A DNA stretch of 64,000 nucleotides from an uncultured Clostridia bacterium (GTDB taxonomy: Bacteria > Bacillota > Clostridia > TANB77 > CAG-508): assembly GCA_934133005.1 (NCBI GenBank), contig CAKPAI010000002.1, positions 132,657-196,656 of the forward strand. The letters are read 5' to 3'. The notes under the pieces are model-generated. The model was not told where the DNA came from, did no database searches, and saw only the letters and a list, made by a program, of their open reading frames with translations. The translations under genes were made by a program, and so were the position numbers. This document shows, one piece after another, positions 30,421 to 55,753 of the stretch (its first letter is position 1; the number at the start of each line of letters is the position of its first letter).

Positions 30421-30489
30421 AATATCACTCCTTTGTTTTTTATTATCATATAATAAACTTTAAATTTATTCAACTATCTATATAATAAA

Positions 30490-30531
30490 AAACTTAAATT
30501 ATTAAACTTTTGCCTAATAATTTAAGTTTTT
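30490..30531 (-). terminator. rho-independent terminator closing the F1-like ATPase locus
   Basis: 14-bp perfect stem AAACTTAAATTATT/AATAATTTAAGTTT with a 12-nt loop, followed by T5 on the minus strand. Confidence 0.55.
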
Positions 30532-30534
30532 GTT

Positions 30535-31191
30535 CTAGTCTTTCACTACATAGTCATTTATATCTGGCTCAGAAAATACAGATTCGTCTATATTTTCAAA
30601 ATCATATTCTTTAACAGTTACACTATCTTCCCATTTTTGACCTATTAAAAGTCCTGTGTCTTTATTTATATACATTGTATTTTTTCCATTGTTAAATAAT
30701 ATATCAAAAATAGATCCATAATTTACTGCATAACATTCTTCATTATTGTAAATTGTTTTCCAAATAGTTGATGTCATTCCTGTTATAATAGCTTGTAAAT
30801 TATTTGAAAAAGCAAATTGATTTTCAACTGATGGAGCAAGAATTACGTTTTCAGTATTTATTTTAACACTTTTTTCAGTTTCAGTATTTACATACATCCT
30901 TTTACTTTCACTATACCAAGAAAGTTTTACTTTTTTTCCGTCTTTGTCAGTCTTTTCAAGAAGTGTTACTTTCTTATTGCCTTTTTTATAACTATCTATT
31001 ACTAAATCATATTCATTCATTGTTGTTACAGATTTTACATGATAATTTTCCTTACTACAATAATCCGCTGCTTCCACTTGCAAAGCTGAAAGTATAACAA
31101 AATTTCTTCCTGTATGCAATACTAATAATACCAATATTACTAAAACTACAATTCCTACAATTTGGGGCCATTTTCTTTTTTTCTTCTCCAT
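30535..31191 (-). CDS. hypothetical membrane-anchored protein (last gene of F1-like ATPase locus)
   Basis: N-terminal TM (IVGIVVLVILVLLVL), otherwise no recognised motif. 23-nt gap from the upstream gene. Confidence 0.5.
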   Translation of the reverse strand: MEKKKRKWPQIVGIVVLVILVLLVLHTGRNFVILSALQVEAADYCSKENYHVKSVTTMNEYDLVIDSYKKGNKKVTLLEKTDKDGKKVKLSWYSESKRMYVNTETEKSVKINTENVILAPSVENQFAFSNNLQAIITGMTSTIWKTIYNNEECYAVNYGSIFDILFNNGKNTMYINKDTGLLIGQKWEDSVTVKEYDFENIDESVFSEPDINDYVVKD

Positions 31192-31214
31192 AATAATCCT
31201 CTTTTCTTTAGTTT

Positions 31215-32024
31215 TTAATATTTATATTCTTTTAAATCATTTATGCTTTTTATCAATAATTGCTCTCCTTTTGATGTTGAAAGTGAGTCAATACTCATAT
31301 TTATTGAATATTTATTTGATATTCCTGTTGCAAGTACATCAAATTTTAAAGATTCATCATCATTTATTGTTATATAATCATCTTTTTCATAATCATAAAT
31401 TTCGATGCTTGTTCTATAATTTACAATAGCATATGATAATGGTGAAACAACATATTGATTTGCACCTATAGTAATAGTAGTAGTTTCTAAGAAAAAGTAC
31501 ATATCATTTCCATCATATAAAAAACTTCCGTTTACTTCTTCTTGATTATTCTTATTAAACTTTTTAATTTTTGATGTATAATTTTCTCTTATTATATTAG
31601 TAAATTTATCTAACTTATATATATCTCCAGTTGGCATTACAAGTTCCACCTGTGCTGGAATTAAAGCCTTACCTAAAACATCAGTATAATACATAGGTGT
31701 TGAATCTAAATACACCGTTTTTCCACCCTCTAGTACTAATTTTATATCATCATTTATTTGCTGAACATCCATAGAACCAGAATATTCTTGCTTTATTCCT
31801 GCAAAATATTGATAATATGATCCTCCTGATAAGTTAATTTTAGTTTGACTTGATACTATTGCATTAAATATTTGATATATTATAAATACAAAAGCTATAA
31901 TCACTGCAACAAGTGCAATTCTAATTACTTTATCATTACTTCCAAATTTTTTAATTTTTCTTTTGCTCTGTGATTTCTTTATTCTGTTTGCCAACTTTAT
32001 TTGCACTTCCTTTCTCTTTCTCAA
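31215..32024 (-). CDS. hypothetical membrane-anchored protein (F1-like ATPase locus)
   Basis: Basic N-tail plus one TM. Apparent TTG start with a 74-nt out-of-frame overlap with the upstream gene; the start is uncertain. Confidence 0.45.
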   Translation of the reverse strand: MRKRKEVQIKLANRIKKSQSKRKIKKFGSNDKVIRIALVAVIIAFVFIIYQIFNAIVSSQTKINLSGGSYYQYFAGIKQEYSGSMDVQQINDDIKLVLEGGKTVYLDSTPMYYTDVLGKALIPAQVELVMPTGDIYKLDKFTNIIRENYTSKIKKFNKNNQEEVNGSFLYDGNDMYFFLETTTITIGANQYVVSPLSYAIVNYRTSIEIYDYEKDDYITINDDESLKFDVLATGISNKYSINMSIDSLSTSKGEQLLIKSINDLKEYKY

Positions 32025-32541
32025 ACTCTTTATTTACTCTATCTTCCGATATCAAATCTATATCTCTTAGGAATATGTATGCTATTAGCATTAACACAAA
32101 TACAACTAAACATGTCTTAATTGTTAAAATTACAATAGAGTACTCAATATCTGCTAAATAATTATCCATTACATATACAAAGTATATCATTACAATCTGC
32201 ATCGCTGTACAAATTACTTGGTATACAATTCTTTTTCTAGTTATTATTACGTTTATTGCCGTCAATATAACAAGCATTATAAAACATACCCACATAGAAA
32301 ATTCTTGTATTGTTATTATAGCATAACATGCCAGAAATGTCTTTAGTATGACTATAGAAATTTTTAAAATATCAATTTTTTTCATTCTCAAAAATAGTCC
32401 ATATATGAATATCTTTGATTTTTTATCTTGCCTAAAGTTTCTTATTGCTAGATAACTTATACCTCCAATAAGAAACATTAGTACTAAGAAAGATATGAGT
32501 AGCCATCTAGACTCTTGTATATAATATAATACTAGTTCCAT
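31951..32541 (-). CDS. hypothetical polytopic membrane protein (F1-like ATPase locus)
   Basis: 4-5 predicted TM helices. Follows the epsilon-like gene after a 25-nt gap. Confidence 0.5.
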   Translation of the reverse strand: MELVLYYIQESRWLLISFLVLMFLIGGISYLAIRNFRQDKKSKIFIYGLFLRMKKIDILKISIVILKTFLACYAIITIQEFSMWVCFIMLVILTAINVIITRKRIVYQVICTAMQIVMIYFVYVMDNYLADIEYSIVILTIKTCLVVFVLMLIAYIFLRDIDLISEDRVNKEFEKEKGSANKVGKQNKEITEQKKN

Positions 32542-32566
32542 ATCTTATGTTTTTAACCTTTCTTTT

Positions 32567-34190
<1,624 letters not shown>

Positions 34191-34226
34191 TTATTTTTCT
34201 TCCTCTCCTCTTTATCTTAAGAAAAC

Positions 34227-35012
34227 TTATGAATTCAAGTTTACCTTATTTATGTTATCTAGCTGTTTCTTTAAACTCTTCATTTGTCTTTCTTTACGTT
34301 CTTCTCTAGTCTTTTCTTCTTCAATTTCATCAATTTTTTTCAAAGATTCTTTTGTTATCATTTGTCTCATGATATTTTCAGAAGCATAACTATTTTCAAC
34401 AGCAACTTTTATTTCATAACCTAAATATAATGCAATTATATTTAATAATATACTGTTAATATTTCCTTCAACAGCAAAGTCATCTTGATAATCTTCTGCC
34501 TTTGCCTTTGTTTTATCTAGTGGTAATATTTTTTGCTTTACACGCTCAATTCTACTTACATTATAATAATGATTATAAACTAGGTTTATTGTTTTATATT
34601 TTTTATCTCTAATACTTTCAAACATTATTCTATTTATTTCATTATTATTTTCAAAATATTCATCTTTTGACATTGATAATAGAACATTTGAATAAGTTTT
34701 ATCCTTTATTACTTTTTTACCTATTATAATTTTATCATTTTCTGTATCTTTTTTTAGCATTTCTGTAATATTAGAATTGAAGCTTCCACAGAACCCTAAA
34801 TCATTTGCTATATAAATGTTCAGTTCTTTTCCTTGATCATTCATTTGTATCATTTTTTTATCTAATATTAAGTTACTGTTATTTAATATATTATCAATAA
34901 AATCTCTTACTGATTGTTCATATCCAGAATATTTTTCTGCTTTTTTCTTAGAAGAGTCAACTCTTAGTAGTGAATGAAAGTTCATAACTTTTACTACACT
35001 TTTTATTCTCAT
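34227..35012 (-). CDS. atpG: F1 ATPase gamma subunit homolog
   Basis: 261 aa. DLGFCGSFN (cf. DRGLCGGLN) and a C-terminal ASENIMRQM helix (cf. ASEQAARM). Confidence 0.7.
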   Translation of the reverse strand: MRIKSVVKVMNFHSLLRVDSSKKKAEKYSGYEQSVRDFIDNILNNSNLILDKKMIQMNDQGKELNIYIANDLGFCGSFNSNITEMLKKDTENDKIIIGKKVIKDKTYSNVLLSMSKDEYFENNNEINRIMFESIRDKKYKTINLVYNHYYNVSRIERVKQKILPLDKTKAKAEDYQDDFAVEGNINSILLNIIALYLGYEIKVAVENSYASENIMRQMITKESLKKIDEIEEEKTREERKERQMKSLKKQLDNINKVNLNS

Positions 35013-35030
35013 TTCCTTGTCTCCTCTCTT

Positions 35031-36365
35031 TTATTCTGCAAAATCTTCAAATCTTTCTATAATTTCTTCATTTGAAAGTGGATCGAATTTTTCTTGTCTT
35101 AATAACATTTCAATTTTCTTTCCTTCTTTTAATTTTTCTTTCAAATCTTCACTTAATTCATCAGTATTTGCAAGTTCATAAACATCTCTAGTTTCTAGAT
35201 AATTTAAAAGTTTCATTCTTACTGTTGCACCTAATTTTTTAATTTCTTTAGTTTGAACGGCACCACCAAGTCTTGATACTGAAATTCCATAGTCAATAGC
35301 TGGTTTTTGTCCTTTTAAGAATGATTTATTTGATAAAACAATTTGTCCATCTGTTATAGAAATTATATTTGTAGAAATATAGTCTGTTATATCTCCACCT
35401 TTAGTTTCAACTATTGGAAGTACTGTTATAGATCCACCATTTTTATGTTGACAGCCTTTTTCAAGAAGTCTTGAGTGTGTATAGAATATATCTGCTGGAT
35501 ATGCTTCTCTACCCGGAGTTTTGTTTGATGTTAAACTTATTTCCCTGTATATTTCAGCATGTCTTTTTAAATCATCTATTACAACTAACACATCTCTTCC
35601 TTTTTCCATGTATTCTTCCGCAATTGACATACCTACATAAGGAATTAAGCTTATTACTGGTGTTTTATCATCATTTGTTGCAACAACCATTATAGTATAG
35701 CTTAAAGCATTTCTTTTTAGTAATTCATTATAAATTGACTTTATTTCCTTTTTAGTTTTTCCTACTGCAACATATATACATATCATTTGTCCATTTCCAT
35801 CAGGTTTTACTTTTCCTTGGTTTACAATTGTATCTAGCGCAATTTGAGTTTTACCTGTTCTTTTATCTCCTAGAATTAATTGTCTTTGTCCCTTTCCTAT
35901 TGGGTATATTAAATCGATTCCAGCAATTCCTGTAAGAAGTGGTCTACATACTGCTGTTCTATCAATTATTGGAACATTTGGTTTTTCTATATCTATATAT
36001 TTATATTTTTCAAATGGTTTTCCAGATAGTTGATCTGTTCCAAATATATCTGTTATTCTTCCCATTGCATCTTCTGAGAATATTGCTCTAAATATCTCTC
36101 CTGTTGAATTAACAACATCTCCAATTTCAATTTTTGAACTTTCTTTTACTATAGCTATACTTACAGAATTTTCATATATGGCATTTACATATCCCATTCC
36201 CTTTTCCATAATTACAACTTTTTCAAAGTACATAACATTTTCTAGTCCTGCAACTTCTACTATATAGTCTTTTATCTTTATAACTTTTCCTGAATCAAAA
36301 ATATTGTTTTTTGATTTTATTTTTTCAACTTTTTCATTAACAAGATTCGTTATATGTGTTTCCAT
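35031..36365 (-). CDS. atpA: F1 ATPase alpha subunit homolog (C-terminally shortened)
   Basis: 444 aa. PIGKGQRQLILGDKRTGKTQIALDTIVNQ (Walker A), GREAYPADIFYTHSRLLEK, TNIISITDGQIVL and the arginine finger SVSRLGG. About 60 aa shorter than canonical alpha at the C-terminus. Confidence 0.85.
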   Translation of the reverse strand: METHITNLVNEKVEKIKSKNNIFDSGKVIKIKDYIVEVAGLENVMYFEKVVIMEKGMGYVNAIYENSVSIAIVKESSKIEIGDVVNSTGEIFRAIFSEDAMGRITDIFGTDQLSGKPFEKYKYIDIEKPNVPIIDRTAVCRPLLTGIAGIDLIYPIGKGQRQLILGDKRTGKTQIALDTIVNQGKVKPDGNGQMICIYVAVGKTKKEIKSIYNELLKRNALSYTIMVVATNDDKTPVISLIPYVGMSIAEEYMEKGRDVLVVIDDLKRHAEIYREISLTSNKTPGREAYPADIFYTHSRLLEKGCQHKNGGSITVLPIVETKGGDITDYISTNIISITDGQIVLSNKSFLKGQKPAIDYGISVSRLGGAVQTKEIKKLGATVRMKLLNYLETRDVYELANTDELSEDLKEKLKEGKKIEMLLRQEKFDPLSNEEIIERFEDFAE

Positions 36366-36382
36366 TTACTTTTATCCTTCCT

Positions 36383-37204
36383 TTATATACTATAATCATA
36401 GATTTTATCTCTATATTTAATAATTATTCCTTCTGACATATTATTATAAGGTTTTACAACAATATCATCATCTATTAAATCATATCTACTTTCTACATTA
36501 TTCGTGTAAATATACACTGTAGGTTCGATTTTTTCTAGTCTCTCATCTAAAGCTTCTATAAGTTTTCTTACATCAAATTTTTTCATTTGACTCATTTTTT
36601 CAAAATCAATTGTGCTTTTTTCCTTTGCAGTTAATACTTCGCTTAATACTTGTATTTGCTCATTAGGCTCTAATGTTAGTATATTATAAATAGCCTCTTC
36701 ATCAAATTTATCTCTGATTTTCTTTAATGCTTTGTATTCTTTGTTTTCGGATTCATTTCTATGCTCAGCAATAAAACTTTTTATAATCTTTTCGTTATTT
36801 ACAGTAAATACTCTTTTGACCTCTTTATAATTATTAAAAAATTGTGTCTCTCTGTAATCTGGAACATTTAAATTATATTTTATTTCTTCTGTTTGCTCTG
36901 CTTTAGCATCTTCTACTATGCTCTTTTTCTTCTTTTTACTGTTTTCTAATTCTGCAAATTCAGCTTCTTCTTCATCACTTTGTAAAATATTTTTATTAGC
37001 AGATTTTATTTCATCTATTTGTATTTTTATTTCATTTAGTTTTGATTGCTTTTCATCTAATATATAATCATAATCTTGCATCTTATTTACAAAATATTTT
37101 TTTGCATTATCATCCATTCTTTTAATAATGTTACTGAAAAGAATAAATACAAACACAAGCATTATTGCAATTAGTATCACTGCTACAATTACTAAACTTA
37201 ACAT
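36383..37204 (-). CDS. b/delta-fusion-like stalk protein: N-terminal TM + long coiled coil + OSCP/delta-like C-terminus
   Basis: 273 aa. TM at residues 1-25, then a Lys/Glu-rich helix. The C-terminal GIIIKYRDKIYDYSI resembles the delta C-terminus GGLVVRIGDKVIDGSV. It occupies the atpF-atpH position between the c-like gene and alpha. Confidence 0.55.
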   Translation of the reverse strand: MLSLVIVAVILIAIMLVFVFILFSNIIKRMDDNAKKYFVNKMQDYDYILDEKQSKLNEIKIQIDEIKSANKNILQSDEEEAEFAELENSKKKKKSIVEDAKAEQTEEIKYNLNVPDYRETQFFNNYKEVKRVFTVNNEKIIKSFIAEHRNESENKEYKALKKIRDKFDEEAIYNILTLEPNEQIQVLSEVLTAKEKSTIDFEKMSQMKKFDVRKLIEALDERLEKIEPTVYIYTNNVESRYDLIDDDIVVKPYNNMSEGIIIKYRDKIYDYSI

Positions 37205-37317
37205 ATTCTTTTCCTTTCACTTATGATATTTATATATCATATTTTATACATTAGTATTATTACATTTAGCCTATATTTGCTTAATACTAAATTAAGAAAA
37301 TATAGGCTCCTTGTTTT

Positions 37318-37575
<258 letters not shown>

Positions 37576-37618
37576 TTACCTCGGAGAAAACTTTTTTAAG
37601 CTTTCTCCTATCCTTTCT

Positions 37619-39151
37619 TTAATAATTTATTATTTTTGAACTTAAATATTTGTTTATCTCTTGTCCATTATATTTTAAATTTTGTAGTTCTATTTTTATA
37701 GCACCATTTGAAGTTTTATACTCATTTGGTATAGCAAAACTACCTGTATAACCGTTAACACCTGCTTGTTCTAGTTCACTGCTTGTAAGTGTTATAATGT
37801 TATCTGCAGTTTCTTGATTATTTACATACACTGCAATTTCGGCTCCAGAATCATACACAAATTCACTATCTAATTTTAATGAATAATATACTTTATCTGT
37901 TGATACTCTTGTAATTTTCAAACTTTCCACTGGAGATTTAGTTCTAGTTACCATAGTATCTTCAATCATTTCTTCTACAGATGCGTCTGCAAATATTGTT
38001 TTATATCCCATTTCAATATAATAGTTAGTATTTGGAGAAAGTCCTGTTACTCTATAAGATGTATTTGATTTATCAAGTGAAATATTGTATGGTGTTATAT
38101 TATCACCAGATATTCTTAGATATACAACATTATATTTACTTTCAGGGTCAGTTACTGAATAATTTACATCTATGTAAGTAACTCCTGAACTTAAACTATT
38201 TAATTTTATGCTTTTTGCAAGTGTTGCGTCATCTTTCTTGCCACTATTGCCATTATATATACTATCAAATCCTGCTGCGACATCTTTTATCCATTTATTT
38301 AAATCATCTACCCAAGTTGTATCCATTTTAGTTCCAGGAGTAATATTGCTATTATTTCCAACATTTCCTGTTGTTCCCGAACCACCATTTATAATAGTTG
38401 TAGATGAATTATTATTATTTGTAGTAGAATTAGATGCATAATTTCCACCTTGATTTGGAATTGTGTTTTGATTTTCTTCAGTATTTTTCTCTTCTTCTTT
38501 TTCTACTTTTACATACTCGTTTGTACTTCCAAGTATCCTTTTTAAATTGATTGATGCTTCTTCTTGTTTAAATGTAAGTTGTTCATTTGCAACATCAAAA
38601 TCAAAATCGCTTGTACTTATAACCATTTCATTTATAGTTTTAGCATCAATTTGGTTATTTAATAATTGAGCATTTCCTAATCTGTCCACTATTACAATTA
38701 AATAATTTTTAGTAGATAGTGAACCTGTGTTGTTTTCTATGTTTGGAGCTACTATCAAATATTTTCTATCTGCAATTTTATAAAATTTACAATCATTGGT
38801 TCCATTAATTGTATTGTAGTTGGTTAGTTTATTAACATTTCCTCCTTCGAAGACTTGGTAAAAGTCTCCGAAAAGAGTTAATGAATTTCTGTTTTTATCA
38901 AATGCTACTGAATAGCTTCCTAAATTGTATTCTTTGTCCGTTTGGCTTTCTTTTAAATAATATCCACCTGTCCATTTTTTAGACACTGTTCCTATATTTT
39001 CCAGCTCTATATAATTATAATCAGAGTCATATACACATATAGAACTTGATACTTCATACTCTGTTTTACCATTTTGCAATACTATAACTACTGCTCCTGC
39101 AAGAATTAGTAAAATTATTATTACTATAAACGTAAATATTGTAAAATTCAT
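37619..39151 (-). CDS. membrane-anchored surface protein with FN3-like domain, paralog of the N-terminal module of the giant proteins
   Basis: ORF 37619..39178 (TTG). The RBS-supported ATG at 39151 begins MNFTIFTFIVIIILLILAG (TM). KIADRKYLIVAPNIE matches KISATKYLILANNMK of the 1950-aa protein. Shared N/T/G-rich linker TNNNNSSTTIINGGSG. FN3-like LSPNTNYYIEMGYK. Confidence 0.65.
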   Translation of the reverse strand: MNFTIFTFIVIIILLILAGAVVIVLQNGKTEYEVSSSICVYDSDYNYIELENIGTVSKKWTGGYYLKESQTDKEYNLGSYSVAFDKNRNSLTLFGDFYQVFEGGNVNKLTNYNTINGTNDCKFYKIADRKYLIVAPNIENNTGSLSTKNYLIVIVDRLGNAQLLNNQIDAKTINEMVISTSDFDFDVANEQLTFKQEEASINLKRILGSTNEYVKVEKEEEKNTEENQNTIPNQGGNYASNSTTNNNNSSTTIINGGSGTTGNVGNNSNITPGTKMDTTWVDDLNKWIKDVAAGFDSIYNGNSGKKDDATLAKSIKLNSLSSGVTYIDVNYSVTDPESKYNVVYLRISGDNITPYNISLDKSNTSYRVTGLSPNTNYYIEMGYKTIFADASVEEMIEDTMVTRTKSPVESLKITRVSTDKVYYSLKLDSEFVYDSGAEIAVYVNNQETADNIITLTSSELEQAGVNGYTGSFAIPNEYKTSNGAIKIELQNLKYNGQEINKYLSSKIINY

Positions 39152-39207
39152 TTTATTTCCTGCTGCTAAGTTTCTCAAATGGTCTCACCTCCTATTTTCT
39201 ATATTCT

Positions 39208-45060: not shown

Positions 45061-45267
45061 ATTTTTTTATCTCCTTGCATTTGTTCAAAAATCTTCTTTT
45101 ATAGCTTATCATACTGGTTTTGAAATTTCAATACACATTTTTTCCATTTTTTTTAATTTTATACCATTAATGTGTAAACCTCTCTATTTTTCAAGCATTT
45201 TCGAGCTTATTTTGCAATTTCTCTCATTATTTTTTTTTCATTTCATTTTTGTTACAAAAAAATTACA

Positions 45268-45295
45268 CTATCCTCATTGTGATAGTGTAACTTTA
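45268..45295 (-). terminator. rho-independent terminator after the 3484-aa gene
   Basis: TTACACTATC-N8-GATAGTGTAA 10-bp stem immediately after the stop, followed by T7 on the minus strand. Confidence 0.6.
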
Positions 45296-45298
45296 ATA

Positions 45299-48200
45299 TT
45301 ATCTATTACTTTTTCTATACATTACAATCAAAGCTAAAATTATTACTAAAACTATAATTGAAATCAATATAGTTCCTATATTTTGCATTGTTTTCTTTCC
45401 AGTAGATATGTTATTGTAATAGTTTGTTAATTCTTGACTCTTATTTATCTTTGCATTTTCTGTAGTTATAGTTGATGTTGTTGTATCTAAAAGTTCATTT
45501 GCACTATATACTACATAGTTTTGTGAATTTGAATCATATGCAGTTACATAACCTGCACTTGCGTTATTATTGCTACTTTGATTTGAGTTCGAAGGTTTTT
45601 CTCCTGTTGTATTTGTCTCAGTCATAGTATTATTCGAATTGCCACTATTTCCTGTTTCACTATTTTCAGTATTTTGCTTTAATTCAATTTCACTTGTTGC
45701 ATCAGCAATAGATTTTTTCTCTAATTTTTGTACTAACTCTTGAGCCTCTTTATAATCTTTTTCATCAATTTTATATGATAGATTTTCTAAACTCAATCCA
45801 TTTAATAAGTAACTTACAAAGTTTGTACTTTCATTATTTACTCCATTATCATATATTTCTTCACCAGTTATATAATTAAATCCATATACATTTCCTGTCG
45901 CAGAATATATTAAAACTATTTCACTGTCATTATTTAAGTTATTAGTCATTTGTATAATCTTTTCATTTTTAAAGTTTACTGGATATTTAATATCAGTTAG
46001 AAGATTATATATTTTACCATCAGTACCAAGAGTTGATTCATACTGCTTATTATTGTATGAATCTATTACTACAGAAGTTCCTACATTAGAGAACTTTCCA
46101 TCAATTACATACATAGTACCTTTTTTGATAAATATTTGTCCATCTTTGAATACATTTGTTCCATCTTCTTCTGTTACTTTTGTACAATGATAGAATGTTT
46201 GAACTTTTTTACCTAAATATGTGCTTTCTGTTATTGGAGTAATATTATCTAATAATTTCATTCCAGATACATTTCTAATATTTTTCATAGAACTTAAATC
46301 ATAAACATTTCCATTTGAATCTAGTACTTCGCTCTCATATAAGTTTGTAAAAGTTCCTTTTATTGTTCTTTTATTTGAATTTAGACTTCCATCTGATAGA
46401 TAGAAATATTCATCATTAGATATTGCAAGCATATTTCTTATATCATCTGCTTCAAAATCTTTTGTATCCCAATAATTAGCATTTGTAATTCTTATAGTAA
46501 ATGGAGATTTAAAATCATATTCAAAAGTATATACTCTTTGATTTATTTTTTGCTTTTCACTTATAATTTCGCCATTTGAAGTTACAGAAAATGTTGCACT
46601 TGTATTTGCCTTGCTAAATTCAATATTTATTTTATCTGCTCCTACAGTATATACATAAACTTGTGGCAAGTCTTCTTCCAATTGATCATCCTCATAATAT
46701 GCTACTGGCATAATCTCATCATCTAAAAGCATTAAATTTGCTAACGTTGCTTCACTTGCTAGTTGTTCACTAAACAATCTTATTGTAGCTTCACTATAAG
46801 TTATTGTTCTTTCTGGTATTGCAAATTCTTTAATAGTTACTCCCATTTCACTCCAATAAGTTTGTGCTGAATAATTTGGTTTTAGTGTTGGAAAATATCC
46901 AGATTTATAATTGTATCTTCCTGTACCAAAGTTTAAGCCTTCATTTCCTACAGCAACTTGTCCTATAACAGTAGAACCAATTATATTTCCTTCTTCATCA
47001 TACTCATACTCGTATTCATCCTCATAGATTCTTACATTTTTAGTATAATTACTTACAACTTTTAGCTCATCACTAGTTATCATTTTATAGTTTTCATTTT
47101 CTTCTACAATTCCTGATACTTGTGTTTTTGTAGCTAATAATTGGTTTTGCAAATTGCTTCCATTATATATGTAAATATTATTCATATATTTTGCTTGAAA
47201 TAACCCATAGTCAGAATTTTTAATTGATGCAATTCCCATATCAGCATATTTGCTTGATGTAGATATAACATCTGTTGCAATTAAATTACACTCAATAATA
47301 TTATATTTTTCAACATCAGGATCATAATTTATTTCTTTATATATTTCACCAATTAAGCCTCCTGCTGAACTTTTAGCAGATATATTTATTGTCTCATCAC
47401 TGTTTGCAATATAGTTATATTTTATTGTAGCTTTATATTGTAAGTTATTTAATTTGCTATTATCAAAATATCCTACTATTCCACCGGCGCCTTCTCCTGT
47501 TGCTGTTACATCAGTATTTACAGCATAACAGTATTGGATATTTCCAACTTGGCTTCCTCCTGCGATTCCACCAACATAATTTGCTCCTTTTACATAGCTA
47601 TCTTCTATATATGAATGCCACAAATAGTAATTGCTAGATTTTATTGAATTTGCTGAAGTTCCAACATAACCTGTATAGTATCCAACAATTCCTCCAACAT
47701 AATTTCCTCTTCCTGTAACTGTAGTATTATTAGTTACAGCTCCACCATGTATTGTTCCTCTCTCATATCCTGCAATTCCTCCAACATAACCAGAACCAAT
47801 AATCGTTACATTTGATACATATGCTCCAGCAGTTGAATAATTTGAATTATTAGATGTTGATATTGAAGTATTAGTATACTCATTATATCCAACAGCTCCA
47901 CCTACATAATTTCCAGAAGCCGTTACTTGGCAGTTCTCAACTTTTAATTCTTTTATTCTTCCATTTGTCCATCCAACAGAACCAGATACATAGTTTCTAC
48001 CTATTATTTCTTGGTTTGTTCCTGTAGATAGTGAGTTATTTAAAGTAGCATTATTGTTATTTAGTCTTCCTACATTTCCTGCTACATAATCTAATCCTTT
48101 AATATAATTGTTTCTAGATACAGGGTTTGAAACTGATGACCAACCAGTATTTCCATAATTTCCACCTACATAAGAACCCGTTGCACTCTTTGTTTTGTAG

Positions 48201-51200
48201 TCACTTACTTTATTTAGATTATTTGTTGCAATTATTATGTTATTTTCTGAAGTTGCACTTATGCCACTCCATCCTCCTTGTTGACCATTGTTGCCTCCAA
48301 CATAATTTGCTCCAAGTATAATATTATTTGTTGAAACCATATTATTGGTTGAACTTGCACCATTTCCACAATTTGCACCTACATAATTTCCAGTTCCTAA
48401 AATTATACTATTGCTTACTTTTGAGTTATAGAAAGTTGATCCACTTCCACCATATTCACCAATCGCTCCTCCAATGATACTTCTTCCTTTTATTAAGTAA
48501 TCGGTTTCTTCATCGCTATCTTTTTTACCATTTTCAGAATATTGATATGCATAAACTCCATTGATTGTATTTTGTGTACTTCCGAATATTCCACCAGCAT
48601 AATCGCCCGATGCAGTTACCTGTAAATATGTTCCTTTTATGTTACTTGTTGATCCCAATGACGCTGTATATCCACATAATGAACCAACATAGCTTTCACC
48701 TGTAACATTCATTCTATTTAGTGTAATATTATTAAATCTACCAGAAACTGCTCTTGATACTACTCCGACGTAATTCTTTCCGCCTTCGATAGTTATGTTA
48801 TCAAAAGTACAATCCTTCATTTCTCCTCTTAGTATGCTAATGATTCCACTATAATTTCCAGTACATGTAATCTTAGAATCTTTAAAGTGAATATTTTCGC
48901 AATTTGTTTTTATTTCTTTTATAAGACCAGAACTATCTCCTACTGATATATTTACATTTTTAAATGAATATTCTGTACTTCCTTCTAGTCTACCAATTAC
49001 AACATTTGTTACAATATGATCAACTGTACTAAAATCAATATCTCCAGTTATTCTTACATTTTGACCTATGTAATTTTTTCCTGAATTTTCAAAAAAGTCA
49101 TTCCACTCATCAGCATTTGAAATACCTTTATATAATGTAACTTTTATTTTCGTTGATATTTCTTTTTGTACAAAGTTTGTTCCATCTCTTGTATAAATTA
49201 TATTTTCAATTTTATAACTTTCAAAAGCTTTATTTGGAGTTGCAACAAATTTTGCTATTGTAAGTCCTGTTCCTTCCTCCTTTGATGTAGTCCAGCTTCC
49301 ATCAACAACAGACATATCATTGTCTTCTATTGTTACACCTGTTAAACTTAAATCATTAGGATTTTCAAATTTCATTTCTACTGTAACATTTGTTTTGTCT
49401 TCTGATGGTGTAGAAGTAATACTATATAGTTTTAAATCATTATCAAGTGTAATTAGTTTTTGATTTGCAAGCAATCCACTCTTTGATGTATTCATTAATT
49501 GTGGGAAATATCTATTATTTAATAAATTCATTTCTTGACCATTTTGAACTATCGTTCTTGCAAAATTATCATCAAATTTTAACAAGTTTGCAAAAGTATT
49601 GTCTGTAAATATTTCATTATCTTTTAATAGTTTAGTTGCTCCATATAAATCTGTTTTCTTTTCGCCACTCATTAATTGGTCTGCATAAGCATAGTTATTA
49701 TATGAAGTAGTTCCGCCATTGTTTCCTAAAATTCTATTGAAGTTATATATACCTGTGTTTCCTGCTATATAAATATTTCCTAAGAATAAACAGTTTTGTA
49801 CTCCTGAAGCACCAGTATCACTATAACCTGCAATACCTCCAAAGTAAATATTTCCACTTGTAGTTTTTGTATTTAAGTTAATCAAACTATAACAATTCTT
49901 TACATAGCAAGAACCATATTTTCCAAATCCTAAAATTCCTCCTGCATTTGTAAATGTATTTATCCTTCCTGTAGTATAACAGTTTTGAATATAGAATACT
50001 GGTGAACCTGCTTTTACTCTTTCATCTGAGTCATGTCTTTTATAACCAACAATTCCTCCGATACCATCTACTTGAGTTACACTCGTTGCTTCAACATTAT
50101 AATTTTGTACATAACAGTTTTGTATATATGTAGTAACACCACCAAATGCATATAAGTTTCCAACAATTCCTCCTGCATCAATATACAATGAATTTGGAGA
50201 ATTAAATGTCAAATCAAATCCTTGAACAGAACAGTTTTGTACTTTTATACTGTCAGCTGGATTACTACTTCCACTACTAATTGAACCTACTATTCCTCCA
50301 TATTTTCCATTGTCTTTATTATATGACACATTCATTTCCATATTTGATATACTAACATTATCAATTAGTATATTATCAGTCATATCTGCTCTAGCAATCA
50401 TTCCTGCATATTGAGAATTTGTATTTATTGTAAAGTTATTTATATTAAGATTTTTTATTTCACCTTCTGCAAATCCTGCAAATAACGATTCTGTTCCACT
50501 TATGTTATTTATAGTGTGCACTTTTCCTTCATATTCGCCATCTAAGTAGCCTGTAAATGTTCCTGTTATATATGGGCTATATTCAGAATCAGCAAAATTT
50601 AAATCATTAACTAATCTATAGTTTTGTATTAATCCACTTACGCCATTTTCATCAGTTTGATCTATATTTGTCCAGTCTTTTTCGTTTGCTATCTTCTTTA
50701 CAAATCTTACATCAATATATCTTGTTCCCATTGCTTCATTTTCACCATATACTGATGTTTTTATGACACCATTTGCCTGCTTACTTTGAATCTTTGATAC
50801 ATTGTAAGTATCTAAGAATGAAGTTGGATTATTTAATAACATATATACTGTACTTACTCTCTTGCTATATGATTGGCTTAAAATTACTTCATCCAAATAA
50901 TCAACATCAATTACACTTATTGTTGTTCCTGCAGGGTTATAAACTCTAAATGAAACAAGTTTTGTATTTTCATCGGTCAAATCAACATTATTTAATGTAA
51001 TATATGAATTTATTTCATTTCTAACCTTATCTGTTATATCTAATGAACTTATATCATTATTTTCTATTACAGAACCTGAAAGTATATCAATTATTTCATT
51101 ACCTGTAATATCTATTTTTACATTGTCTTGTTTAGGCATACAATAATTTAGTTTTAATTGAGGATAATATCCATTTGAAACTAAATTTTCAACAGTAAAG

Positions 51201-54200
51201 TTTTTATAACTATTAGCATTTAATATTACTTCTTGAACCCCTGGTTCGTAAAGTCCTGTTGATGCTGTTTTAGTATTATAATCACTGTCATCATACATTA
51301 CTTCACAGAAATAGTAACAATCATTTACATTTGTTCCTGCATTTTTATTCAAAATACTTGGTCCTAAATATTGTTCTTTATTTTCTGCATCTAATTCTCC
51401 TGAATATTCAAAATCTTCATATGCAGTAATAATTGACATTACAGAATATACATTTCTTATAGTAGCACTGCATGATGGTCTTGATATTATCTGTCCTAAG
51501 TTATTAGTTACAGGTGGATATCCTAAATCATATACAATATTTCCTGCATAAGAATATGTTCCACTTGTATGATTTATTTTTATTGTTGTTGTATTAAATA
51601 TATTTTGCATTAGTCCATTATTTCCATCTAATTGAACTGCTACTCCTCCAATATATCTATAGTCATATGCAGCTATATCTCCATATGTTTCAATTCCTTG
51701 CCCATAAATATATCCATTTTGTATTGTTCCATGTGAATATAAGCAAACTCCTGCTATATATTGTGATGCATATAATGGTACTTCATAATCTATGATAAAG
51801 TTATCTATTTTTCCTGAATTGTCATATCCAAGTAAAGCGACATTTGCTCTTGCTTTTTGAGTTGCCTTCTTTAGTCTAACAATTACATTATCTATGTTTC
51901 CTTCATTATATAAGAATAGTGAATAATATCCATCTTCTTTTGCAGCTGGTACTTCAACAATTTTATCTCCAACTACAGTTACTGTCATTTTAGGAGATAC
52001 ACTATTTAAAGAATAATCTATTACAATATTCTTTAAATCAGCTTCTGCTCCTAATTTATAGAATATATATGAAGTTACTTCTCTTTTTGTTGTTAGCGAA
52101 TAAGTATCTTTAGTTATGGTTTTTCCATTGAAGTCTATTGTTCCATTAAATGTTATATTTGGATTTCCAAATGTATAAGATGTTGCTCCTCCAGCATTAC
52201 TTAAATCTATATCATTTAATAGTATATAATTTCCATTAGGTTGTATCTCTAGAAATTCATCAATTGTTGATATACTCTTAATTTCAGTTTTAGCATTTAC
52301 GTCATATTCAAAAGTTACTTGTGACAATACATATTCCCTACTATATTGCCTTATTATAAGCTCTACTGTGTAATCAATAGTATCATTTCCACTTTCTTCA
52401 ATAATATATTTTTTCACTTCTTCGATCATAGTTACAGAATCATAATTATAATCAAATTCTTGTACTTTTGTTTGATTTGAAGAATTTTTAGAAGTTATTT
52501 TTATATAATATTTACATGAATTTGCACTTTCATCAAATGTAACATGTTTTTCATCTATAAATTTAACATCCATATTTGCATAGAATGTATATTTATATTT
52601 TTCATAACTTGTCGCAGAATTTCCTTTTTCTGCTTGTAAATCTTTTACTTTCAAATAATAGTCTTTTTGATTTATAACTTCTTCATCATCAGTTATTTTT
52701 TCACCATCTTCATTGGTCTCGCCAGGAATTATATCCACTTGTGAATAATCTTCTAGGTAAAAACCTACAAAACCATCATCTGGTACAGTTATTGTTTGTA
52801 CAAATTCTGCCCAATTATCAGTTGTTATTCCACTAAGTTCAGTTATATTTCTGCCAATTCCTTTTCCTAATTGCATATATATTTTTGGTGTTCCTGTTGC
52901 TACAGGATTGTTATCTTTCCATTGATATTGTGCCTTAAACGATAATGTAACTTTTTCACCCACATAATTTCCTAAATCATAAACATAACATTGATTTGAT
53001 AAGAATGTAATTTGATTACTATTTTCATCATATGTCTTACCATAATTATACTTAGATCTTGTTTCATAATTTACAACATCATTATCTAATACATACTCTG
53101 TCTCTAGTACACCAAATGTTTTTGCATACCAATTGTTGTTAGATGATACATCTATAAGATTCTTTCCATTATCTGCAATTTCTCTTTGAAGTCCTATTAA
53201 ATCTATACTTCCTCCAAGACCACTTGTAGTAAACTCTTTTTTACCAATTTGATAATTGTTTTGAACTTTATTAGCATTATTAGTCTCATTATACGAAGCC
53301 GCCTCACAAGTGAATGTATAAATTTCATTTTCTGTTAAGCCTTCATATGTTAATCTTATCCATCTGTTTGTAGGAATTTTAGTTGTGCTTTTTACTTCTT
53401 CTTTGTTCTCATCTATTACTTCTATAGTTGGCAAATATTCTTTTGAAAATCTGTCAACCAATCTTACTATTGTTAGATTATCAGCAACTGCTCCATCTTC
53501 ATCGTCAATATAAATATCCATATCAATTAAGTTTGTAGTTGCAATTACATTTCTTATTTGAAGGGTTGCTGTTTTCTTGTTTGTCATAAAACTATTTGTA
53601 GTATATGATGTTACAATTTCTTTTTCTACACTTCCTTGTTTTGCTACTGCCTTTAACTCAATTTTATATGTTGTATTTGATTCCAAGTTTTCAAATAAAT
53701 TTGCAATTCCATCAGTTTTTAATGAATTTATATCGTCCATAAATACTGATTTAATTTCATTATTCTTACTATCTCTTATAATCATAGTGACATTTTGTAA
53801 AATATTAACTAGCCTATGATCTGTTTTGTCTGTATTTATTGTGGTCCTTAGATTTGCACTACTTGATGTTATATCATTATCTATATCATATGTTACTTCT
53901 AATTTTAAACTACCTAATTTACTTAAACTTAATGTAGTAAATGTTGCACTTCCAATTTCTTGATCTTGTTTTATTCCATTACCATCACCTATATCAAAGT
54001 CACCAAAAACTCTAATTGTATAAGTATTTTCTGGATCTAAATCGCTAAATTCTAATTTATTATCACCTATTTCTAAGTTATCTCTTTTTACTACTTCACC
54101 ATTACTTGATAATAAAATATATCTATAATTATCTATCGTTACTTTATCTTCATTTATTAAAGATACATTTATCGTTACACTTGTTACATTTTGTGCATTT

Positions 54201-55753
54201 ACATTAACTTTTGTAGCTGGAGCTTTCTTAGAAGTTTCTGTATTTCCTGTATTATTCTTTACATTCATTTTATTTCCAGCAGTGTCATATAAGTTAATTT
54301 CGTAGCTGTACTTAGAATTTGATTTTAATCCTTCTGGCGATTGATATGTAATACTTCCTCCATTTATAATATTTCTTAATAGTCCAGAAGATATTGAATA
54401 TGTTGCTCCATTTATGATTATTTCACCTTTTGAAATTCCAAAAACTGCTTCATCTTTAATATCTGAACTAATTTTTATATCTTTTATTTCTATTTTATTT
54501 GAGTATCTTTGTCCATTTTCAAAACTTAGTTCTATTGGATTTAATATATCAATCCCTTTTGTAGTTATTTCTTGTTCATATAATGTATTTTCAATTAAGC
54601 TTCCTTCTTTATTTCGATATTGATATTTTGCAACAATTGTATATGTGGTATCTGGTAATAATTTGGTTACACTTACTGTTCCAGATGAAGTTGCAGAAGT
54701 TCTAAATGCAAGTTGTCCATTTTTATAAAAAGCATATGTTACACCCTTCATTACTCTACTTGGATCTTTAATCGACACTTCAGCATATGATGTATATACA
54801 TTAGCTGTAAATTTAGAACTTTCGACTGTAGGTGCAATCCATTTTACTTCCGGAGTAGGTCTGTCATTATTCTTATTATCATCTTCACTTGGAGTTGTTG
54901 GAATTACTTCTGTATTTGTTTCTACATTATTTTCTGGTTTTTGTTCTGTATTATTTTCTGATTCAGTATTTTTTTCAGTATTTGCCTCTACATTATTATT
55001 TTTATCTTCTCTTGGTTTGCTTTCTTTTATAATCTTTAATCCAATTAAAAATTGTTTATATGTATATTCTTTATTATAGTCTTCTAGTTTTATTATAGAA
55101 TTTTCATCAATATCAATTACTTTATTATATATAAACTCATCATTTTTTAATGTGTAGTAAGTTATAAAACTATTTGTAAAATTTATAATACTATTCATTG
55201 GAATTGTATATTCATTAAACATTGTTTTAATTTTGATTTCTTTTGCATTTACATATAAATTATCTTTGTTTTTCATTAAAATATAGTCATAATAATCAGC
55301 TCTTTCAAGAGTATTTGAATTATATAATGCCCCTGATGTAAGAGTAAAACCTGAATATCCCTCTATTTCCTGAAAATCATCAGTTATTAGAGTGACATCA
55401 GAAGATAAGTTATACACAGCTAATGATCCATTTATATATATAGGATAATTCAAATTTATATTATCTTGCTTGCTAGCACCCAAATAATATGAATTCAAAT
55501 TTTGATATATTGAATCCTGCTCACTTACCTTTAACGCCTTTACCGTATTATCTACATTAAATGTTGAATTTAATAAATTACTTGTTATATCTTTTCCAGA
55601 TACTGCATATCCATTATATTCCATCGTCATATATGGTATGAATCTCAAATATATTATATATATAACTAGCAATATTATAATTAAAAAACTTAATAATGTG
55701 ACAAAAAATAATGGTGTCTTTGTCAATTTTCTTTTTGTTCCTCTATTTTTCAT
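45299..55753 (-). CDS. giant surface protein (3484 aa), N- and C-terminally membrane-anchored, FN3-like repeats plus GLUG/beta-helix-like repeat region
   Basis: AGGAG RBS. N-terminal TM (LFFVTLLSFLIIILLVIYIIYL) and C-terminal TM (IGTILISIIVLVIILALIVMY + RKSNR). FN3-like LLPDTTYTIVAKYQY and NTYTIRVFGDFD. The central region has repeated (I/V)(Q/K)NC(Y/S) ... GGI(V/A)G rungs. Confidence 0.8.
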   Translation of the reverse strand: MKNRGTKRKLTKTPLFFVTLLSFLIIILLVIYIIYLRFIPYMTMEYNGYAVSGKDITSNLLNSTFNVDNTVKALKVSEQDSIYQNLNSYYLGASKQDNINLNYPIYINGSLAVYNLSSDVTLITDDFQEIEGYSGFTLTSGALYNSNTLERADYYDYILMKNKDNLYVNAKEIKIKTMFNEYTIPMNSIINFTNSFITYYTLKNDEFIYNKVIDIDENSIIKLEDYNKEYTYKQFLIGLKIIKESKPREDKNNNVEANTEKNTESENNTEQKPENNVETNTEVIPTTPSEDDNKNNDRPTPEVKWIAPTVESSKFTANVYTSYAEVSIKDPSRVMKGVTYAFYKNGQLAFRTSATSSGTVSVTKLLPDTTYTIVAKYQYRNKEGSLIENTLYEQEITTKGIDILNPIELSFENGQRYSNKIEIKDIKISSDIKDEAVFGISKGEIIINGATYSISSGLLRNIINGGSITYQSPEGLKSNSKYSYEINLYDTAGNKMNVKNNTGNTETSKKAPATKVNVNAQNVTSVTINVSLINEDKVTIDNYRYILLSSNGEVVKRDNLEIGDNKLEFSDLDPENTYTIRVFGDFDIGDGNGIKQDQEIGSATFTTLSLSKLGSLKLEVTYDIDNDITSSSANLRTTINTDKTDHRLVNILQNVTMIIRDSKNNEIKSVFMDDINSLKTDGIANLFENLESNTTYKIELKAVAKQGSVEKEIVTSYTTNSFMTNKKTATLQIRNVIATTNLIDMDIYIDDEDGAVADNLTIVRLVDRFSKEYLPTIEVIDENKEEVKSTTKIPTNRWIRLTYEGLTENEIYTFTCEAASYNETNNANKVQNNYQIGKKEFTTSGLGGSIDLIGLQREIADNGKNLIDVSSNNNWYAKTFGVLETEYVLDNDVVNYETRSKYNYGKTYDENSNQITFLSNQCYVYDLGNYVGEKVTLSFKAQYQWKDNNPVATGTPKIYMQLGKGIGRNITELSGITTDNWAEFVQTITVPDDGFVGFYLEDYSQVDIIPGETNEDGEKITDDEEVINQKDYYLKVKDLQAEKGNSATSYEKYKYTFYANMDVKFIDEKHVTFDESANSCKYYIKITSKNSSNQTKVQEFDYNYDSVTMIEEVKKYIIEESGNDTIDYTVELIIRQYSREYVLSQVTFEYDVNAKTEIKSISTIDEFLEIQPNGNYILLNDIDLSNAGGATSYTFGNPNITFNGTIDFNGKTITKDTYSLTTKREVTSYIFYKLGAEADLKNIVIDYSLNSVSPKMTVTVVGDKIVEVPAAKEDGYYSLFLYNEGNIDNVIVRLKKATQKARANVALLGYDNSGKIDNFIIDYEVPLYASQYIAGVCLYSHGTIQNGYIYGQGIETYGDIAAYDYRYIGGVAVQLDGNNGLMQNIFNTTTIKINHTSGTYSYAGNIVYDLGYPPVTNNLGQIISRPSCSATIRNVYSVMSIITAYEDFEYSGELDAENKEQYLGPSILNKNAGTNVNDCYYFCEVMYDDSDYNTKTASTGLYEPGVQEVILNANSYKNFTVENLVSNGYYPQLKLNYCMPKQDNVKIDITGNEIIDILSGSVIENNDISSLDITDKVRNEINSYITLNNVDLTDENTKLVSFRVYNPAGTTISVIDVDYLDEVILSQSYSKRVSTVYMLLNNPTSFLDTYNVSKIQSKQANGVIKTSVYGENEAMGTRYIDVRFVKKIANEKDWTNIDQTDENGVSGLIQNYRLVNDLNFADSEYSPYITGTFTGYLDGEYEGKVHTINNISGTESLFAGFAEGEIKNLNINNFTINTNSQYAGMIARADMTDNILIDNVSISNMEMNVSYNKDNGKYGGIVGSISSGSSNPADSIKVQNCSVQGFDLTFNSPNSLYIDAGGIVGNLYAFGGVTTYIQNCYVQNYNVEATSVTQVDGIGGIVGYKRHDSDERVKAGSPVFYIQNCYTTGRINTFTNAGGILGFGKYGSCYVKNCYSLINLNTKTTSGNIYFGGIAGYSDTGASGVQNCLFLGNIYIAGNTGIYNFNRILGNNGGTTSYNNYAYADQLMSGEKKTDLYGATKLLKDNEIFTDNTFANLLKFDDNFARTIVQNGQEMNLLNNRYFPQLMNTSKSGLLANQKLITLDNDLKLYSITSTPSEDKTNVTVEMKFENPNDLSLTGVTIEDNDMSVVDGSWTTSKEEGTGLTIAKFVATPNKAFESYKIENIIYTRDGTNFVQKEISTKIKVTLYKGISNADEWNDFFENSGKNYIGQNVRITGDIDFSTVDHIVTNVVIGRLEGSTEYSFKNVNISVGDSSGLIKEIKTNCENIHFKDSKITCTGNYSGIISILRGEMKDCTFDNITIEGGKNYVGVVSRAVSGRFNNITLNRMNVTGESYVGSLCGYTASLGSTSNIKGTYLQVTASGDYAGGIFGSTQNTINGVYAYQYSENGKKDSDEETDYLIKGRSIIGGAIGEYGGSGSTFYNSKVSNSIILGTGNYVGANCGNGASSTNNMVSTNNIILGANYVGGNNGQQGGWSGISATSENNIIIATNNLNKVSDYKTKSATGSYVGGNYGNTGWSSVSNPVSRNNYIKGLDYVAGNVGRLNNNNATLNNSLSTGTNQEIIGRNYVSGSVGWTNGRIKELKVENCQVTASGNYVGGAVGYNEYTNTSISTSNNSNYSTAGAYVSNVTIIGSGYVGGIAGYERGTIHGGAVTNNTTVTGRGNYVGGIVGYYTGYVGTSANSIKSSNYYLWHSYIEDSYVKGANYVGGIAGGSQVGNIQYCYAVNTDVTATGEGAGGIVGYFDNSKLNNLQYKATIKYNYIANSDETINISAKSSAGGLIGEIYKEINYDPDVEKYNIIECNLIATDVISTSSKYADMGIASIKNSDYGLFQAKYMNNIYIYNGSNLQNQLLATKTQVSGIVEENENYKMITSDELKVVSNYTKNVRIYEDEYEYEYDEEGNIIGSTVIGQVAVGNEGLNFGTGRYNYKSGYFPTLKPNYSAQTYWSEMGVTIKEFAIPERTITYSEATIRLFSEQLASEATLANLMLLDDEIMPVAYYEDDQLEEDLPQVYVYTVGADKINIEFSKANTSATFSVTSNGEIISEKQKINQRVYTFEYDFKSPFTIRITNANYWDTKDFEADDIRNMLAISNDEYFYLSDGSLNSNKRTIKGTFTNLYESEVLDSNGNVYDLSSMKNIRNVSGMKLLDNITPITESTYLGKKVQTFYHCTKVTEEDGTNVFKDGQIFIKKGTMYVIDGKFSNVGTSVVIDSYNNKQYESTLGTDGKIYNLLTDIKYPVNFKNEKIIQMTNNLNNDSEIVLIYSATGNVYGFNYITGEEIYDNGVNNESTNFVSYLLNGLSLENLSYKIDEKDYKEAQELVQKLEKKSIADATSEIELKQNTENSETGNSGNSNNTMTETNTTGEKPSNSNQSSNNNASAGYVTAYDSNSQNYVVYSANELLDTTTSTITTENAKINKSQELTNYYNNISTGKKTMQNIGTILISIIVLVIILALIVMYRKSNR

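Follow-up and report, generated by a model that had tools for sequence, protein, structure and literature searches.

What an F-type rotary ATPase might do beside giant surface proteins when its path for ions appears to be missing is the question raised by twelve consecutive minus-strand open reading frames (ORFs) at positions 30535-55753 of a 64,000-nucleotide stretch of DNA (the window) from an uncultured Clostridia bacterium. The original prediction, made from the letters of the window, had described a locus with tiny gaps and a strong closing terminator, in which a complete F1 with a c-like proteolipid and a b/delta-like stalk, and with no subunit a, is tied to enormous extracellular proteins. 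All twelve ORFs were recovered where it had placed them. Eleven of them form one transcription unit, in the order of a 1950-aa surface protein (giant A), a 519-aa surface protein, the c-like proteolipid, the b-delta stalk protein, alpha, gamma, beta, a short epsilon, a protein with 4-5 transmembrane (TM) helices and two single-TM proteins; the twelfth, upstream, encodes a 3484-aa surface protein (giant B). The analysis indicates that the cluster very probably encodes an F-type ATPase module that is genuine, conserved, uncoupled from ions and linked to surface proteins. That the module works as a mechanical driver of the giants is, on the evidence of its genes, slightly favoured.

The hidden Markov model searches suggested along with the original prediction were run, and both large subunits were found to match ATP-synt_ab of Pfam (E = 3.5e-71 for beta, E = 5.9e-73 for alpha), gamma matching PF00231 at E = 1.5e-28. 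Alignment of beta revealed intact motifs, including Walker A (GGAGVGKT), the catalytic Glu in VGERSREG, Walker B and DELSDED, and the alpha3beta3-type head of the F1 looks catalytically intact as judged by its residues. In its alignment, alpha still has the N-terminal H1 helix, the binding site of the peripheral stalk, and its C terminus stops ~65 aa short of that of canonical alpha. The epsilon gene follows beta, overlapping the beta end by 11 nt, and only the N-terminal beta-sandwich is present in its product. The two best PDB matches of the epsilon family profile are the N-terminal domain of Bacillus PS3 epsilon, colinear from 9-86 to 2-79 and weak (E 0.29), and an hhalign comparison with canonical epsilon is colinear at P 0.009. 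Short subunits were also observed in canonical atp operons of Acutalibacteraceae and Oscillospiraceae metagenome-assembled genomes (MAGs; L060:11254-11520 and L064:11254-11520), which have an 88-aa epsilon despite encoding a, c, b and delta; their alpha (471-496 aa) and gamma (269-272 aa) are shortened too. Truncation of epsilon is therefore not enough to mark the unusual family.

The central observation concerns the 83-aa c-like protein. It matches PF00137 (E 1.6e-7), has a c-type hairpin, and keeps the glycine-rich ring-packing motif of helix 1 (GxGxGxG) as well as the R-N-P-E loop that contacts gamma and epsilon. Its C-terminal end, F-Y-N-P-L, resembles the Y-A-N-P-F end of the Ilyobacter Na+-type c. 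As had been predicted, the carboxylate is absent: alignment places an Ala at the column of E. coli D61, PS3 E56 and Ilyobacter E65. This column is Ala/Thr in 8/8 family members first aligned and A, T or S in 119/119 members of a larger set, in which helix 2 contains no acidic residue at all. These 119 members are the family portion of the 120 best database matches to the query alignment; the one exception among the 120 is a canonical Na+-type c, drawn in by the Ilyobacter reference within that alignment. To our knowledge, every characterised F, V or A rotor requires the c carboxylate, and the alignments show a rotor c subunit that would be unable to bind the coupling ion. Since its identity across the family is 63-88%, while the stalk retains only 20-30% between distant members, the c-like protein appears to be under strong constraint. 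The nearest reference to it is the Ilyobacter Na+-type c, at 26% identity, and there are hints in the sequence that the module may descend from an F-ATPase of the Ilyobacter Na+ type. In public annotation the protein is called 'F0F1 ATP synthase subunit C', and the proteins of the family are either unnamed or listed as ordinary F0F1 subunits.

The lack of subunit a, also part of the original prediction, was upheld, as neither the window cluster nor any of about ten related loci was found to contain an a-like ORF; the cluster has no atpI either. Every F-type rotor and stator part is present at the cluster except subunit a. The 196-aa protein, with 4-5 predicted TM helices, belongs to a type that sits after epsilon in all family loci. 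It was considered as a diverged subunit a and rejected, since hhalign gave a probability of 1.4% when it was compared with 16 canonical a subunits and a conserved arginine is missing from its TM helices. It is instead a candidate for the membrane partner of the stalk and c-ring.

For the 273-aa stalk protein, no family match was obtained at the level of sequence. In its AlphaFold2 (AF2) model, which has a mean predicted local distance difference test (pLDDT) score of 74.5, a TM helix continues as a long helix (aa 2-70) and is followed by a disordered linker and a C-terminal domain (aa 120-273) with a pLDDT of about 88. When the model was compared with the PDB using Foldseek, the top 27 matches were all delta/OSCP chains (best E 2.6e-3, probability 1.00), spanning about 140-170 columns and including the b-delta fusion of M. 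smegmatis (7nkd_d). On this model, the protein is read as a b-delta fusion.

The surface proteins were then characterised by prediction and profile comparison. Giant B was found to be double-anchored, with predicted TM helices at aa 16-34 and 3459-3477 and a short basic C-terminal tail, and its body is predicted to be wholly extracellular and held at both ends because both the N terminus and the C-terminal tail are basic. On the N-terminal side, a conserved juxtamembrane domain is followed by an FN3-like region. Searching this protein in pieces gave an fn3 match of 29.5 bits, together with a Peptidase_M26_N match of 35.5 bits (cutoff 27.7) that appears only in this type of search. The Peptidase_M26_N segment covers aa 1723-1802 (window 50348-50587) and resembles the N-terminal region of streptococcal M26 IgA1 metalloproteases. 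It is flanked by two blocks of GGIxG repeats, with aa 1819-1972 and 2658-2798 listed alongside, and the homologues of giant B show faint Glug and Peptidase_M26_N matches in a precomputed Pfam list. The HExxH catalytic motif is absent from giant B.

Giant A consists of an N-terminal TM or signal-anchor helix, a conserved N-terminal beta domain, a linker rich in Asn, Gly and Thr, and a long beta-rich body. In the 519-aa protein, a TM helix (aa 6-36) and an all-beta N-domain (aa 40-211) are followed by a disordered linker, likewise rich in Asn, Gly and Thr, then by a single helix and two FN3 domains. The 519-aa protein, 510 aa long when read from its first ATG, had been called a paralog of the 1950-aa protein. 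This holds for the N-terminal ~200 aa, as profiles with more family members show the two N-domains to be homologous (hhalign 97.2%, E 3.8e-11, 187 columns), but not beyond them; BLAST of one protein against the other returns no match. Among distant relatives, conservation of the surface proteins is highest in the N-domains next to the membrane. No PDB sequence or NCBIfam match was found for the giants or the 519-aa protein, and the identification of the giants as recognisable Gli proteins or M26 proteases was rejected on that ground and for want of HExxH. In one assembly, GCA_027669665.1, both giant genes are split (L091:1728-7927 into 778 + 1270 aa; L091:16075-20261 into 487 + at least 1912 aa), and in metagenome contigs of the same species (L090, L092) the giants are intact at 1952-2062 and 3561-3566 aa. 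The splits could be phase variation, decay or sequencing error.

Three small membrane proteins had been predicted at the end of the cluster, and all three ORFs carry TM helices; conservation in related loci extends to two of them. The 269-aa protein, which has one TM helix, a basic cytoplasmic N terminus and a predicted external domain of ~220 aa, is conserved in all family loci and has no Pfam, NCBIfam or PDB match. The 218-aa gene has no homologue in loci L007-L016, even in close relatives at 85-93% beta identity, and is restricted to the window species, where it is co-oriented and precedes the terminal hairpin. It looks like a recent lineage-specific addition, and its membership in the system is doubtful.

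To establish how widely this arrangement is conserved, beta was used to scan one genome per species. Ten loci were obtained at 60-93% identity; among the best 80 matches, the sequences that came next were canonical betas, none above 48%. Wherever a locus is long enough for the order to be read, giant A comes first, followed by the ~500-aa FN3 protein, c, b-delta, alpha, gamma, beta, epsilon, 4-5-TM protein, a protein like the 269-aa one, and giant B. Homologues of giant B lie downstream of the ATPase module in most lineages (including L012-L014 and L090-L094), while in the window species giant B has been relocated upstream of giant A, with its own terminator, and is still adjacent. A giant gene occupies the giant A position in L008-L014, L087 and L090-L094. 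The same gene order, with giants on one or both sides, occurs in loci of 26-58% guanine-plus-cytosine (GC) content. The tight linkage between an ion-uncoupled F1-like module and surface proteins, as originally predicted, was found to be conserved in the loci examined and across a large family.

The size of this family was estimated using a profile of the stalk protein, which found 434 representatives at 50% clustering among 1.84 billion proteins; even at the lowest-listed match (E about 1e-15) the locus has the identical gene order. The c-like protein of Clostridium sp. OF03-18AA is indexed in 3367 blocks of the collection, at least 1000 contigs carry it, and ORFs of the family are intact on hundreds of independent contigs. 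Window proteins recur with identical residues on 60-265 independent contigs of up to 254 kb, including Hadza and other human gut samples, so the giant ORFs are real and not artefacts. Record labels among the hosts include Lachnospiraceae, 'Clostridiales Family XIII', 'Coriobacteriales' and Clostridium sp. OF03-18AA. The members labelled Coriobacteriales are high-GC MAGs (L016, JAISMZ010000084.1, 57.6% GC; P0526; P0543), in comparison with 26-30% GC in the window clade, and they reflect either transfer between phyla or mis-binning. Among close relatives, identity to the window protein is 85-89% for alpha, beta and c, 79-85% for gamma, 66-77% for epsilon, 58-61% for the stalk, 54-67% for the 519-aa protein, 46-54% for the 269-aa protein, 43-56% for the 196-aa protein and 32-53% for giant A. 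This gradient is the pattern that would be expected of a conserved engine with fast-evolving exposed parts.

To place the module among rotary ATPases, its subunits were scored against NCBIfam models, which served as a proxy for mycoplasma Type 2 and Type 3 sequences. With the atpD model (cutoff 462.85), canonical betas score 790-847 and the family 455-481. The window beta barely passes at 480.9, and family members L013 (460.9) and L016 (455.3) fail. The equivalog cutoffs are missed by alpha (atpA, 419 vs 484), gamma (TIGR01146, 62 vs 194) and c (25.5 vs 43.95). With the N-type beta model (cutoff 752), canonical betas reach 573-607 and the family 409-416; with the Type 2 model MMOB1670 (cutoff 850), 525-559 and 382-395; and with the Type 3 model MSC_0618 (cutoff 570), 438-454 and 380-401. 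The window subunits accordingly failed the Type 3 models NF045934/NF045936 of the MSC_0618/0619 family (beta 400.7 vs 570; alpha 308.2 vs 520), the Type 2 models NF045858/NF045863 for MMOB1670 and MMOB1660 (beta 394.4 vs 850; alpha 384.1 vs 600) and the N-ATPase models TIGR03324/TIGR03305 (alpha 362.9 vs 750.5; beta 409.1 vs 752). By these sequence scores, the family is outside the N, Type 2 and Type 3 groups and has no special affinity to the mycoplasma types.

A comparison of alpha and beta with canonical F1, which had been proposed as a check, was made with a paralogue-rooted neighbour-joining tree. Family alpha and family beta are each monophyletic in 100/100 bootstraps and lie outside the sampled canonical sequences, which are themselves monophyletic in 99 (alpha) and 90 (beta) of 100. 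Both subunits are about 39-42% identical to canonical ones, which share 65-71% across phyla; for the window beta the figure is 42%, against 71% among canonical betas. The family has kept atp gene order together with a c-like subunit, a stalk and alpha H1, which indicates that it descends directly from an ordinary atp operon. The mycoplasma ATPases had been offered as an analogy, and it is as an analogy that they stand.

The proposed explanation is that an F-type rotary ATPase has been rebuilt as an ATP-consuming mechanical motor that would no longer be an ion pump or an ATP synthase. The enzyme would be restricted to ATP hydrolysis, which would turn gamma, epsilon and the c-ring against a stator made up of alpha3beta3, the b-delta stalk and the 4-5-TM protein. 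As ions have no route through it, such a machine may pass torque or a cyclic conformational change across the membrane to the N-terminal TM helices and juxtamembrane modules of the surface proteins. Outside the cell, the giants would be moved, tensioned or reset, for example in surface motility, in adhesion and release, or in surface remodelling. The double anchoring of giant B invites a speculative picture of a crank or winch, attached to the stator side by one end and to the rotor side by the other. Such a machine would have originated from an ordinary atp operon by keeping its order, losing a and fusing b with delta, independently of the mycoplasma Type 2/3 F1-like ATPases. On a broader and more tentative view, held with rather less than even confidence, walled gut Clostridia, and possibly some Coriobacteriia, may possess an unrecognised rotary machine in which an ion-free c-ring serves as a purely mechanical rotor that moves giant proteins. 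This would be a new Gram-positive apparatus for motility or adhesion and release, evolved independently of the mycoplasma motors and preserving an architecture intermediate between F1Fo and 'F1-X0'.

Several points weigh against a motor. The system is known here from genes alone, and not from expression, assembly, ATPase activity, rotation or contact, and it has no defined membrane stator through which torque could be used. We know of no precedent for force transmission through a Gram-positive wall. Sequence-level support is weak for epsilon and for the b portion of the stalk, and the delta-like fold depends on an AF2 model of pLDDT 74.5 and on Foldseek matches with E values of only 2.6e-3 and weaker. 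The tree was built by neighbour-joining from a biased sample containing no mycoplasma Type 2/3 sequences, and long-branch artefacts are possible.

The same observations were weighed for other explanations. The ATPase could serve the biogenesis of the giants, that is, the export, membrane insertion, folding or extraction of proteins of 2000-3500 aa, and not their operation. The genetic linkage fits this role equally well as a motor, and the export of very large double-anchored proteins is a plausible special need. As a loose comparison, F1-related FliI/SctN ATPases serve type III export, and the beta of the cluster also matches FliI/SctN models, as any F1 beta does. However, all rotary parts have been kept (the hetero-hexamer with alpha H1, the gamma shaft, the c-like ring subunit and the peripheral stalk), the family matches at the cluster include nothing like an export gate or translocon, and the ordinary N-terminal signal-anchor helices of the giants suit Sec or YidC, which makes a biogenesis role unlikely. 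It is quite improbable that the adjacency is incidental, with a module that has its own function, such as regulated ATP dissipation or a scaffold, and adhesin-like giants as mere neighbours. With a terminator of its own, the 3484-aa gene is probably transcribed separately, and the linkage is known from genes and not from interaction. Yet giant A and the 519-aa gene lie only 29-49 bp from the ATPase genes, and the same kinds of neighbours, with homologous N-terminal domains, occur in every lineage examined over 26-58% GC and stay adjacent even after rearrangement.

An enzyme that still translocates ions as an F-type ATPase or synthase would need an unrecognised a-like subunit, either the 196-aa protein or one encoded elsewhere in the genome, and an unconventional ion site. 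The canonical gene order, the public annotation as subunit C and the bare pass of beta at the atpD equivalog (480.9 vs 462.85) would agree with it. This is nonetheless very unlikely given a c helix 2 free of acidic residues in 119/119 members, a 196-aa protein with neither similarity to subunit a nor a conserved TM arginine, and alpha, gamma and c scores far below the equivalog cutoffs. Finally, the loss of a and of the carboxylate, the truncation of alpha and epsilon, and the long branches might suggest a decaying, functionless remnant of a duplicated atp operon. A remnant is scarcely credible when the ORFs are intact on hundreds of independent contigs, the catalytic residues are conserved, the c-like proteins are 63-88% identical, the stalk has 434 representatives at 50% clustering and the gene order is kept across distant hosts. 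An ion-uncoupled module that would drive the surface proteins mechanically is the explanation preferred here.

Table 1. Genes and transcription signals of the cluster, with positions in the window and the basis of each assignment.
Feature	Position	Strand	Basis
Giant surface protein B, 3484 aa	45299-55753	minus	ORF
Intrinsic terminator of the 3484-aa gene	45256-45290	minus	sequence, scan and fold
Giant surface protein A, 1950 aa	39208-45060	minus	ORF
Membrane-anchored surface protein, 519 aa from TTG (510 from first ATG)	37619-39178	minus	ORF
c-like proteolipid, 83 aa	37318-37569	minus	PF00137
b-delta fusion-type peripheral-stalk protein, 273 aa (predicted)	36383-37204	minus	AF2 model and Foldseek
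Alpha-like subunit, 444 aa	35031-36365	minus	ATP-synt_ab
Gamma-like central shaft, 261 aa	34227-35012	minus	PF00231
Beta-like catalytic subunit, 456 aa	32820-34190	minus	ATP-synt_ab
Short epsilon-like subunit, 87 aa	32567-32830	minus	position after beta and weak profile match
4-5-TM membrane protein, 196 aa	31951-32541	minus	TM prediction and position
Single-TM protein, 269 aa (263 aa in public assemblies)	31215-32024	minus	TM prediction
Single-TM protein, 218 aa	30535-31191	minus	ORF and TM prediction
Terminal hairpin closing the 11-gene unit	30488-30531	minus	sequence and fold

Two stable hairpins trailed by U-runs split the twelve genes into two transcription units, the 3484-aa gene alone and the 11-gene block from 45060 to 30535. 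Intergenic gaps are between -74 and 113 bp, except for a 238-bp spacer after the 3484-aa gene. The separate terminator that had been predicted for this gene is a hairpin at 45263-45290 followed by U7 (folding free energy, dG, -15.6 kcal/mol, z -5.0), in which the core stem has 10 bp, extending to as many as 14 pairs when folded by prediction, and the loop 8 nt. The closing terminator has a dG of -18.1 kcal/mol (z -7.7), with a 20-bp stem of nearly all A-U pairs and a following U-rich run, and it was missed by a terminator scan that requires GC. A promoter scan gave no enrichment over shuffles and was not used, and Rfam yielded nothing at gathering thresholds in the whole window.

The locus is surrounded by core chromosomal genes, including pgi, thrS, hisS, relA and recJ and those for an M23 peptidase, an HtrA-type protease, MurC and SpoIIP, and the GC content of the window is ~25-33%. 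These neighbours, with MurC, SpoIIP and the M23 and HtrA-type peptidases among them, therefore identify the host as a walled Firmicute of a sporulating lineage, as the original prediction had it. Elsewhere in the window, a 774-aa minus-strand ORF (19927-22251) amid housekeeping genes has no Pfam match at E <= 1e-5, and the minus strand of 1-13000 holds dense, small, co-oriented ORFs and a 437-aa ORF, resembling by ORF sizes only a cluster of ribosomal-protein, secY, adk and map genes.

If the motor reading is true, the principle of F1-like motors acting on surface proteins extends from Mollicutes to abundant walled Clostridia of the human gut, and this exaptation happened at least twice, as convergent evolution. 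The intermediate design, with a c-ring and stalk but neither a nor the carboxylate, would make non-ion uses of rotary torque directly testable, and a possible role would emerge for very large gut-bacterial surface proteins that match no family. Clostridium sp. OF03-18AA has a strain-style name, so cultured material may exist. Annotation of the proteins as ordinary F0F1 subunits could mislead metabolic reconstructions. The architecture is new in that a c subunit lacking the carboxylate and a b-delta stalk occur without subunit a in another class of bacteria; it has not been reported before, and no described family fits it. In the full-text literature searched, most subscription journals excepted, F1-like non-Fo ATPases are described only in Mollicutes, and a 2026 survey of Type 3/MIB-MIP covered Mollicutes only (PMC12994834).

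Comparison with known systems begins with canonical F1Fo, with which the cluster shares the gene order c-b-delta-alpha-gamma-beta-epsilon, the catalytic motifs, the c hairpin with its GxGxGxG motif and RxPE loop, and a peripheral stalk (b + delta) together with alpha H1, the predicted delta/OSCP fold matching, among others, that of the mycobacterial b-delta fusion. It differs in lacking subunit a, atpI and the c carboxylate and in adding extra membrane proteins and giant surface proteins. Like the window cluster, N-ATPases are divergent F-type clusters, but they have a, an ion-binding c and AtpQ/AtpR in the order atpDCQRBEFAG, whereas no a, Q or R is present here. N-ATPase operons are reported to be additional to the housekeeping enzyme (PMC3369863).

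In mycoplasma clusters the genes are ordered differently, a 12-TM protein is encoded, and the stalk and H1 are both lacking (PMC3369863, PMC11864180, PMC12994834). The Type 3 cluster has seven genes, among them one for a 12-TM protein; c and the peripheral stalk are absent, and alpha lacks H1 (Beven 2012, PMC3369863; Berlureau 2026, PMC12994834). The window cluster, in contrast, has a c-like subunit, a b-delta stalk and alpha H1 in another gene order, has no 12-TM protein, and comes from a walled Clostridia host and not a Mollicute. Its accessory proteins gave no Pfam or NCBIfam match that would indicate a MIB/MIP resemblance, no MIB/MIP-specific model having been run. The two have in common that alpha, beta, gamma and epsilon are of F1 origin, that an ion-translocating Fo is lacking, and that the genes lie beside those of surface proteins and are inherited with them; for both it is proposed that cytoplasmic ATP hydrolysis leads to conformational work outside the membrane.

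The Type 2 G1-ATPase of M. mobile differs from the window cluster in its beta, as the window beta lacks the long N-terminal extension and its 456 aa cover no more than positions 241-685 of the 705-position model. The window cluster showed no sign of GliD, PGK, twin-motor or chain components. The gli genes of M. mobile are described as lying apart from the ATPase genes, while in the window cluster the giants adjoin them. In mycoplasma, F1-like ATPases act on surface proteins both in gliding (PMC11864180) and in the antibody-cleaving MIB-MIP system, for which the Type 3 ATPase is needed (PMC12994834), and the gliding motor of M. mobile works with the surface proteins Gli349, Gli521 and Gli123 (Toyonaga 2025, PMC11864180). 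The window cluster and this motor have in common an F1-like rotary ATPase together with membrane-anchored surface proteins of thousands of residues, and both need a rotary-to-mechanical transmission across the membrane.

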